This document shows, piece by piece, positions 34,645 through 37,701 of a stretch of DNA of 64,000 nt (positions are counted from its first letter, which is position 1; the number at the start of each line of letters is the position of its first letter). The DNA lies in assembly GCA_031393505.1 (NCBI GenBank), contig JANMVX010000175.1, forward strand, positions 3,536 to 67,535, in the 5' to 3' direction. The translations under genes and the position numbers were made by a program. The DNA comes from Hyphomicrobiaceae bacterium. GTDB taxonomy: Bacteria; Pseudomonadota; Alphaproteobacteria; Rhizobiales; Hyphomicrobiaceae. Below the pieces are notes generated by a model. It did no database searches and was not told where the DNA came from. It was given only the letters and a program-made list of their open reading frames with translations.

Positions 34645-34840
34645 CACCGGCGGTCCACAGGGTTCAGTCTCATCGACGGCCGGTCTCCTGGCTCGCGGCT
34701 CGTCTGCTTCCGGTCGCCTTCCCAGCTCACGCCAGTGGCCAAAGACCGAAAACTCGCCGCTTACAGTTGCGGGGGCAGCTCCGGACTACACACCGGATTC
34801 CCAATCGCGCCTTTCAGCGCACCGTCAATCGCTCAGTGAT
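34645..34840 (-). promoter_or_regulatory. cobalamin (AdoCbl) riboswitch leading the cbtB-cbtA-...-cobJ operon
   Basis: The minus strand reads GGTGCGCTGAAAGGCGCGATTGGGAATCCGGTG..TCCGGAGCTGCCCCCGCAACTGTAAGCGG...GCCACTGG...GGGAAGGC...AGCCAGGAGACCGGCC (B12 box at 34678-34695), then the SD and ATG of cbtB. Confidence 0.85.
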
Positions 34841-34915
34841 AGCCTATGACGGGGCGGTGTCAATTGCCCTCCGCGCCGCTTGTTCCTGCGGCCGGCTCGC
34901 GCCTATGGTTCTGTG

Positions 34916-36042: not shown

Positions 36043-36049
36043 GAAAGGT

Positions 36050-36148
36050 GGGGACTAGGGACTAGGGACTAGGGACTAGTAAAAGAAGTAAGAGGGTGGC
36101 TACCTCCTTTCTTTCTTACTAGTCCCTAGTCCCTAGTCCCTAGTCCCT
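36050..36148. repeat. long hairpin built from tandem heptamers: (GGGACTA)x4 ... (TAGTCCC)x4
   Basis: GGGACTA x4 at 36051-36078. TAGTCCC x4 at 36120-36147. The arms extend imperfectly through AGTAAAAGAAGTAAGAGG / CCTCCTTTCTTTCTTACT. Sits between the cobO stop and the cobQ start. Confidence 0.75.
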
Positions 36149-36168
36149 AAACTCCCATTCCCACCCTC

Positions 36169-37701
36169 ATGTTCATGGGCACCGGCTCCGACGTTGGCAA
36201 ATCGCTGATCGTGGCGGGATTGTGCCGGCTGCTGAGCAATCGCGGGCTGCGGGTGCGTCCGTTCAAGCCGCAGAACATGTCGAACAACGCGGCGGTGACG
36301 GAGGATGGCGGCGAGATCGGGCGGGCGCAGGCGCTGCAGGCGCGCGCGTGCCGCGTTGCGCCCAGCGTTCACATGAATCCCGTGCTACTGAAGCCGCAGA
36401 GCCAGATCGGCGCCCAGATCATTGTGCAGGGGCGGATGCGGGGCAGCGCGAAGGCGCGAGAATTCCAGGCCATCAAGCCGACGTTGATGCCGGCGGTGCT
36501 GGAGAGTTTTGCGCGGCTGAAGGCCGAAGCTGAGATCGTGCTGGTGGAGGGGGCGGGATCGGCCTCTGAAATCAATCTGCGCGCCAACGACATCGCCAAC
36601 ATGGGGTTTGCCCGCGCCGCGAACGTGCCGGTGGTGCTGATCGGCGACATCGACCGCGGCGGGGTCATTGCCAGCATCGTCGGTACCCATACGGTTCTCG
36701 AGGCTGGCGATGCGGCGATGATCCGCGGCTTCCTGATCAACCGCATGCGCGGCGACGTGTCGTTGTTCGCCGACGGGGTCGCGGCGATTGAGCGGTATAC
36801 GGCCTGGAAGAGTCTGGGCATCGTCCCGCATTTCGATGCCGCCCACAAACTTCCGGCCGAAGATGCGCTGGCCTTGCGCGATGCGGCGCGGTGGCAGGGA
36901 AAGGCGGGACTCGAGACTCGGGACTCGGGACTCGGTTCACGCGCGCTCGCGCCGTCTACGAGTCCCGAGTCCCGAGTCCCGAGTCCCGGTCGCGTCACCA
37001 TCGCCGTCCCCGTCCTGCCGCGCATCGCGAATTTCGATGATCTCGACCCGTTGCGGCTCGATCCCGCGCTATCGCTCCGCCTGCTGCACAATGGCGAACC
37101 GATCCCGCCCGATACCGATCTCGTCATCCTGCCCGGCTCCAAGGCCACCATCGCCGATCTCGCCGATTTGCGCGCCGCCGGCTGGGACCACGATCTCCAC
37201 GCCCACGTGCGCCGAGGCGGCCGCGTGCTGGGCCTGTGCGGGGGATACCAGATGCTTGGCCGCAGCATCGCCGATCCCGCGGGCATCGAAGGGCCGGCCG
37301 GGTCGGCGCCGGGGCTCGGGCTGCTCAACGTCGACACCGTGCTCACTGGCGCCAAACAGCTGCGCGCCGTCACCGGCGAAACGGTCGCCGATGGCGTGGC
37401 GTTCTCGGGCTATGAAATGCACGTCGGCGAAACCTCCGGCCCGGACGCTGCCCGCCCCCTGGTGCGCTTTGCCGACGGCCGGGTGGACGGCGCCACGTCC
37501 CTGGACGGCCGGGTGTCCGGCGCCTACGCGCACGGCTTTTTCGCCGACGACCGGCAGCGGCGCGCCTGGATCACCCGTCTCGGCGGCGCCAACGGTCCGT
37601 CCACATCCTACGACGCCACCATCGAGGCCACGCTCGACGCGCTCGCCGAACATCTTGGCCGGCATCTCGACATGGACGCGCTGCTGGCGATGGCGGGCTG
37701 A
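36169..37701 (+). CDS. cobQ: cobyric acid synthase
   Basis: 510-aa ORF ([39 protein letters not shown]-terminal GATase [10 protein letters not shown]). Carries an about 27-aa repeat-encoded insert in the interdomain linker. Confidence 0.9.
36906..36987. repeat. heptamer hairpin (GGGACTC/GAGACTC)x4 ... (GAGTCCC)x4 embedded in frame in cobQ
   Basis: Left arm 36906-36935, right arm 36960-36987. Translated as [27 protein letters not shown] within CobQ. Confidence 0.7.

Follow-up and report, generated by a model that had tools for sequence, protein, structure and literature searches.

An apparently tolerated in-frame copy of a lineage-restricted heptamer-hairpin repeat in the cobQ gene of a Hyphomicrobiaceae bacterium

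Introduction

Short G-rich heptamer repeats have been described in Xanthomonas, as (GGGAATC)n, and in Nostoc, as GGGGA(C/T)T; their function is unknown, and the intragenic copies, which are rare, were not analysed as translated inserts (Rehm et al. 2015, PMC4692102). Four-unit heptanucleotide elements of the GGGACCG type are found in Geobacter metallireducens, some of them within genes (Aklujkar et al. 2009, PMC2700814). The RPE of Rickettsia form families of ~100-150 bp in which conservation extends from end to end and includes the encoded peptide (Ogata et al. 2000/2002, reviewed in PMC10969869). Finally, tandem heptamers occur in the 23S rRNA intervening sequence (IVS) of Coxiella, together with an AG-rich flank and excision by RNase III (Warrier et al. 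2016, PMC4990558).

Here, we analyse a palindromic element built of tandem heptamers that is translated as part of cobyric acid synthase (CobQ) in a Hyphomicrobiaceae bacterium. The stretch of DNA analysed (hereafter, the window) comprises 64,000 nt of contig C266 of genome G000, a fragmented, MAG-like assembly of 5.56 Mb with 63% GC and 387 contigs. The element belongs to a dispersed repeat family, is specific to a lineage, leaves the reading frame of its host gene intact, lies in a loop and is free of stop codons in its composition. We consider it probable that it is a tolerated in-frame copy of a lineage-restricted heptamer-hairpin family, which persisted as a stop-free insert of 81 nt in a permissive linker.

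Results

Within cobQ, the preliminary description of this DNA had reported an 82-bp hairpin-forming element at positions 36906-36987, and its sequence, the composition of its arms and its coordinates were reproduced exactly (Table 1). The palindrome is beyond chance: the GGGACTNGGGACT pattern has 12 matches in the 64-kb window against 0.19 expected, a count reached in none of 100 shuffles. The strong potential mRNA hairpin claimed for the ORF was also recovered upon folding, at -73.6 kcal/mol (z = -7.4), with 0 of 200 shuffles folding equally well. An Rfam scan of the heptamer hairpins yielded no family above the gathering threshold, and the sub-threshold matches were miRNA-precursor look-alikes, as any long hairpin would give. 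Judging from the printed sequences, the flank GGGAAAGGC may represent an outer stem that belongs to the insertion: flanks of the GAAAGG/GGAAG type, read by eye, lie 5' of the left arms in many genomic copies, including GGGAAGGC at the copy in the glycine dehydrogenase gene (see below); a complementary partner is absent on the right side of the cobQ element. The window also carries a cobalamin riboswitch at 34661-34841 on the minus strand (Rfam RF00174, 116 bits), upstream of the divergently transcribed cbtB/cbtA, as well as a candidate RayT-like gene with a REP of a different type, GGTGTCAGACAC.

Table 1. Features of the cobQ element, its host gene and two related hairpins (positions in the window unless a contig is named)
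Feature	Position	Strand	Description	Basis
cobQ (cobyric acid synthase)	36169..37701	+	intact 510-aa ORF hosting the element	ORF list, Pfam, AF2
Left arm	36906..36933	+	GGGACTC GAGACTC GGGACTC GGGACTC	sequence reading
Loop	36934..36959	+	26 nt, GC 0.73, stop-free, unique in genome	loop comparison
Right arm	36960..36987	+	4 perfect GAGTCCC, the reverse complement of GGGACTC	
Codons read from the element	36907..36987	+	27 codons, CobQ residues 247-273, predicted disordered linker loop	
Purine-rich left flank	36897..36905	+	GGGAAAGGC (codons QGKA), candidate outer stem of the inserted element	
Sister element	36051..36147	.	(GGGACTA)4, 41-nt AT-rich loop, (TAGTCCC)4	cobO-cobQ spacer
GcvP hairpin	G000:C257:8775-8839	-	(GGGACTC)3...(GAGTCCC)3 inside glycine dehydrogenase GcvP	

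The CobQ that hosts the element is longer than usual, as had been suspected, its 510 aa comparing with a median of 479 aa among 45 alphaproteobacterial CobQs. Pfam assigns residues 1-232 to CbiA, alongside an AAA_26 match, and residues 277-461 to GATase_3; the residues encoded by the element fall between these matches, that is, in the linker between the ATPase-like and glutamine amidotransferase domains where the preliminary description had placed them. In the alignment of the 45 CobQs, the segment between LPAEDAL and the next conserved stretch is short and variable, and ~30 extra residues are present here. A sequence search of the PDB for a solved CobQ structure gave no match, and placement relied on an AlphaFold2 model built from the 45-sequence alignment (mean pLDDT 88.6, pTM 0.89). 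The sole segment of this model with pLDDT <50 is the coil of residues 245-269, between a helix (233-245) and a strand (276-281), and the insert is predicted to be a disordered interdomain surface loop. On either side of the element, GC3 is 0.83 and 0.86. Within a set of 5.8 billion proteins, the insert region matched nothing beyond the CobQ cluster of the organism itself. The named CobQ most similar to the whole protein comes from a Hyphomicrobiaceae MAG and is 67% identical. From the sequence, we infer that CobQ with the insert is made and active, and that ribosomes melt the mRNA hairpin.

The composition of the unit bears on the open frame of the element. Since 3 does not divide 7, an array of at least three heptamers passes through each of the three reading phases. 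Both GGGACTA and TAGTCCC contain TAG, which places a stop in every frame of an array, whereas arrays of GGGACTC and GAGTCCC have no stops in any frame and are always read as permutations of GTRDSGL and ESRVPSP; hence, only the GGGACTC variant survives within genes. The number of stop-free frames is 4 of 6 for the CobQ copy and 6 of 6 for the GcvP copy, and ranges from 0 to 4, mostly 0, across 36 intergenic hairpins. Given that GGGACTC copies are also found in intergenic positions, and that this variant is dominant in the congeneric genome G002, the lack of stops is a pre-existing property filtered by selection rather than a coding adaptation.

The cobQ element is one of many. Genome G000 contains 68 arrays in which three or more GGGANNN units follow one another, compared with 2 for the reversed control pattern, which supports the original claim of a dispersed hairpin repeat element. 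Arrays range from 3 to 11 units with a mode of 4 (25 of the 68), and where they are paired, the arrangement is convergent, with the G-rich array 5' and the C-rich array 3' (22 pairs, and 0 divergent). The most numerous unit is GGGACTA (148), followed by GGGACTC (41), GGGATTA (38), GGGATGA (37) and GGGAACA (16), and further heptamer families of the same genome are built of ATTGCCC, ACTGCCT, GTGAGTG and ACCTGTT. All these copy numbers are underestimates, since heptamer repeats break short-read assemblies; contig ends lie in or near heptamer arrays in contigs C22, C71, C274 and C439 of G002, at the end of G004:C97, and at the starts of G000:C86 and C91. By contrast with the arms, each copy has a loop of its own; loop GC content averages 0.52, below the genomic 0.63, and no master copy of the cobQ or GcvP loop was found in the G000 genome. 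With a loop unique to each copy, the element does not look like a typical MITE or REP spread by copy and paste; thus, the label 'REP/MITE' initially given to it captures a dispersed hairpin repeat and is otherwise too specific for a family that shares only heptamer arms. The GGGACTN pattern is concentrated in this genus (3 of 4 congeners), occurs in three other genera of the same family, and was not found in 24 other families of the order, each represented by one genome.

A related GGGACTA hairpin had been noted 760 bp upstream, in the cobO-cobQ spacer, and is indeed present there (Table 1); it folds at -79.8 kcal/mol (z = -8.8) and leaves none of the six frames open. Comparison of this spacer (36043-36168 of the window) with the orthologous spacers L082, L083 and L086 revealed a heptamer hairpin in all 4 congeners, each starting right after the conserved stop codon followed by GAAAGG. 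Yet the units differ: GGGACTA in G000, GGTAACA in G001, GGGATTG/GGGACTT in G002, and a GCTGCCT type in G004. This pattern suggests either concerted renewal of the arms in place or repeated re-colonisation of the same site.

A second in-frame copy resides in GcvP, where it adds ~16-20 residues and is bordered by sequence with a GC3 of 0.82 and 0.88. The insert maps to a surface loop, gapped against the solved P-protein structure PDB 9uz6. The hairpin is absent from G001, G002 and G004, so that this copy is a younger, species-specific event. Among 14 candidate ORFs spanning arrays in G000, a coding signature on both sides was detected only in CobQ and GcvP, and 17 loci in G001, G002, G004, G005, G015 and G045 provided no convincing in-frame copies. 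The sole long spanning ORF at these 17 loci was rejected as a spurious-looking, Arg-rich antisense frame.

The history of the cobQ insert can be followed among close relatives. An orthologous copy with 11 differences in 82 positions occupies the same cobQ site in G001, a member of the same genus, and the insert is absent from G002 and G004, from the five further genera of the family that were compared and, in the broader alignment, from 41 of the 44 other CobQs. The 27-aa segment is therefore lineage-specific, a point that the preliminary description had proposed to check, and the equivalent linkers in distant taxa that it had named as contrary evidence did not emerge from the CobQ alignment. 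The DNA identity of cobQ between G000 and G001 (0.80), G002 (0.76) and G004 (0.74) fits the topology ((G000,G001),G002),G004, and the distribution of the insert over these genomes implies a single putative gain on the stem of the G000-G001 pair. The 498-aa CobQ of G002 was considered as a possible decayed remnant, a reading that gained no support, given that its local alignment with the element was no better than those of shuffles (p ~0.35).

The G001 gene, however, has to be used with care. Its cobQ (L083, G001:C10:608449-609978) carries two indels, of +2 near gene position 622 and of +1 near position 883, neither in a homopolymer, which put ~87 codons, including the hairpin, out of frame and introduce one TGA. 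These indels reflect either a real pseudogene or an assembly error. Accordingly, G001 dates the insert and is not evidence of tolerance, which is demonstrated only by the intact ORFs of G000 and its near strain. Between the two species, 7 of the 27 residues have changed, no compensatory changes of paired positions are seen, and the fold energy rises from -69 kcal/mol in G000 to -51 kcal/mol in G001, a pattern more suggestive of relaxed constraint than of structural conservation. Furthermore, three right-arm units of G001 share the same C-to-T change, which probably indicates homogenisation within the array.

The CobQ linker has received other repeats as well. Three of the 44 other CobQs (L014, L036 and L042) have longer linkers at the same position. 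In L014 (L014:3001-4509), the insert is a 101-nt palindrome with ~40 copies in its own genome, and in L036 (L036:3001-4557), it contains a ~28-nt REP-like motif with >20 copies in its own genome; both are in frame, and both come from other alphaproteobacterial MAGs. Together with the heptamer hairpin, these inserts mean that at least three unrelated repeat families entered the CobQ linker independently. Thus, by sequence comparison, the interdomain linker appears to be a permissive, recurrent landing site for unrelated palindromic repeats. In-frame insertions of REP/MITE-like elements had been called uncommon, an overstatement in view of these 2 repeat inserts among 44 CobQs and the second copy in GcvP, and of the in-frame palindromes of Rickettsia (PMC10969869) and the intragenic heptanucleotide repeats of Geobacter (PMC2700814) already in print.

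Some copies of the heptamer hairpins carry a gene. The hairpins at G000:C91:5005-5513 and G000:C306:2562-3065, in which GGGACTA arms enclose loops of ~410 nt, are 82% identical to each other. The protein encoded by either of them has 136 aa and belongs to the four-helix-bundle proteins of the 23S-rRNA-IVS type (PF05635, 1.6e-37; TIGR02436, 1e-35), and the first TAGTCCC unit supplies its stop codon. A third PF05635 paralogue of this genome (G000:C109:2953-3318) lies between nuoC and nuoD and is flanked by inverted 8-mer arrays, and a PF05635 gene on G002:C45 is located between GGGACTC arms. Reading the flanks by eye, we found short tandem arrays in inverted orientation on both sides of all 18 PF05635 loci that 10 genomes of the family contain, with a locus-specific unit; an automatic search for inverted repeats was positive for 17 of the 18, some of the repeats being only 8-10 nt. 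The cobQ copy has an inverted tandem-heptamer stem like that of the PF05635 cassettes, but its 26-nt loop is without a gene. Some loops of short hairpins retain the GTAAG...CTTAC inner ends seen in the gene-bearing copies. Thus, the short hairpins are plausibly gene-less relatives of the PF05635 cassettes, a derivation that we infer from these shared features.

Discussion

Our analysis suggests the following scenario for the cobQ element. The family has the general form 5'-(GGGANNN)n, variable loop, (NNNTCCC)n-3', is restricted to one lineage, and includes the 82-bp palindrome as a gene-less copy. In the common ancestor of G000 and G001, the cobQ linker would have acquired a copy of the GGGACTC subtype, either by insertion or by growth in place. 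It could have persisted there given that GGGACTC and GAGTCCC are stop-free in any frame, that the added length is a multiple of three, and that the site is a naturally variable, permissive linker connecting the ATP-binding domain to the glutamine amidotransferase domain; translation would simply yield 27 extra residues in a disordered loop at the surface. The element is best regarded as selfish or neutral DNA that is tolerated, rather than as a functional module.

Alternatively, the hairpin could be a local mutational product that arose in place, with heptamer arrays generated by replication slippage and the second arm templated by fold-back or template switching. This is an unlikely explanation, although one to be taken seriously. 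Indeed, a loop unique to every copy, array sizes from 3 to 11 units and the C-to-T change common to three right-arm units of G001, which points to homogenisation within an array, are all compatible with local growth; furthermore, the presence of hairpins with different heptamers in the cobO-cobQ spacers of the four congeners fits turnover at least as well as insertion, and these differing units keep the in-place origin alive. However, the GGGACTC unit recurs at unlinked loci and around the PF05635 gene in G002, the GcvP hairpin has both of its arms, with no intermediate stage seen in three congeners, and the uniform polarity of all 22 pairs suggests a defined element.

A bolder version of the scenario is that the hairpins are gene-less derivatives of a mobile PF05635 cassette that colonises not only rRNA helices but also operon gaps and ORFs, with the stop-free arms being translated as new disordered linkers in essential enzymes and the arms being renewed in concert at a fixed site. 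At present, we regard this combination of events as speculative and rather doubtful.

Retention of the hairpin as a functional RNA or DNA structure inside the ORF, whether for processing by RNase III, for pausing translation at the domain boundary or for regulation through a G-quadruplex, is improbable. The stem is very stable, RNase III cuts the long stems of the related rRNA intervening sequences (PMC4990558), (GGGNNNN)4 repeats form G4 structures in vitro with a preference for four units (PMC4692102), and three of the G001 changes preserve G-U pairs in the RNA. The corresponding G3N4 x4 motif is also present in the heptamer family, but the second G-tract of the cobQ copy is already interrupted and reads GAG. 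Moreover, compensatory substitutions are lacking, stability is 18 kcal/mol lower in G001, most congeners and all the other families examined lack the element, and nothing in Rfam exceeds the gathering threshold.

Finally, an assembly artefact or a native linker that is repetitive by chance, to which the fragmentation of G000 into 387 contigs and the frequent ending of G002 and G004 contigs in heptamer repeats might lend some credence, is refuted to the extent that sequence data permit: the identical structure is found in a slightly different strain, on an independent ENA metagenome scaffold encoding a 510-aa CobQ with 507 of 510 residues identical and differing from the window by 12 SNPs in 1783 nt, with both hairpins unchanged except for one loop substitution, and the diverged orthologous copy in G001, the excess of matches over the chance expectation and the membership in a family of 68 arrays argue in the same direction, leaving this reading with hardly any probability. 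The artefact that the preliminary description had feared is thus not borne out by the independent contig.

Tolerated insertion of a dispersed repeat, the reading that we prefer, makes the locus a clean and datable case of repeat DNA turning into protein sequence outside the obligate intracellular bacteria where the phenomenon is best known. The host is an alphaproteobacterium of the free-living type, with one insertion common to two species and a second unique to one of them. The locus also offers a simple rule for which repeat variants survive in genes, namely, those with a unit that is stop-free in all frames, and, in a single genome, it connects the PF05635 cassette family with the G-rich heptamer repeats, which have so far lacked an explanation. 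For annotation, the implication is that long CobQ variants are not errors, the linker being a recurrent landing site.

Compared with described systems, the finding is a fresh example of a known phenomenon and not a novel type of element or mechanism. The G-rich heptamers of Xanthomonas and Nostoc (PMC4692102) are among the closest published cases: as in these repeats, the G000 family has units of the GGGANTN kind, with GGGA conserved and the 3' positions variable, a preference for four units, a dispersed and mostly non-coding, intergenic location, and frequent convergent pairs. The differences are the alphaproteobacterial host, the units GGGACTA/C, GGGATTA, GGGATGA and GGGAACA, and, at cobQ, the presence of a whole hairpin in frame within an enzyme. 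The GGGACCG elements of Geobacter, a deltaproteobacterium, are single arrays regarded as putative regulatory RNA, and were described without a partner arm and without a lineage or protein-structure context (PMC2700814), unlike the cobQ hairpin. REP/REPIN-RAYT systems and classical MITEs are similarly short, dispersed, hairpin-forming and mostly intergenic, but the family described here has arms of tandem heptamers instead of a fixed palindrome and is without a conserved full-length consensus; among MITE features, inverted arms are present, whereas a target-site duplication is not apparent by eye at GcvP, the one site at which filled and empty alleles were compared.

The 23S rRNA IVS with S23p/PF05635 ORFs known from Coxiella and Leptospira (PMC4990558) resemble the cobQ element in the long terminal-inverted-repeat stem, the tandem heptamers and the AG-rich outer flank. 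They differ in that the cobQ copy is gene-less and lies in a protein-coding ORF rather than in rRNA; excision from RNA has been described for the IVS. In behaviour, the nearest counterparts are the palindromic elements of Rickettsia (RPE; PMC10969869) and Wolbachia, which likewise are palindromic repeats placed in frame in unrelated metabolic genes and translated at sites where the fold tolerates them; in G000, in-frame palindromes occupy structurally permissive sites in the CobQ linker and in the surface loop of GcvP. Unlike RPE, the copies have nothing but their heptamer arms in common, each with its own loop, and do not form a full-length family with a conserved peptide. Thus, judged by the description of RPE, the cobQ element would be one that behaves like an RPE but stands outside the RPE family.
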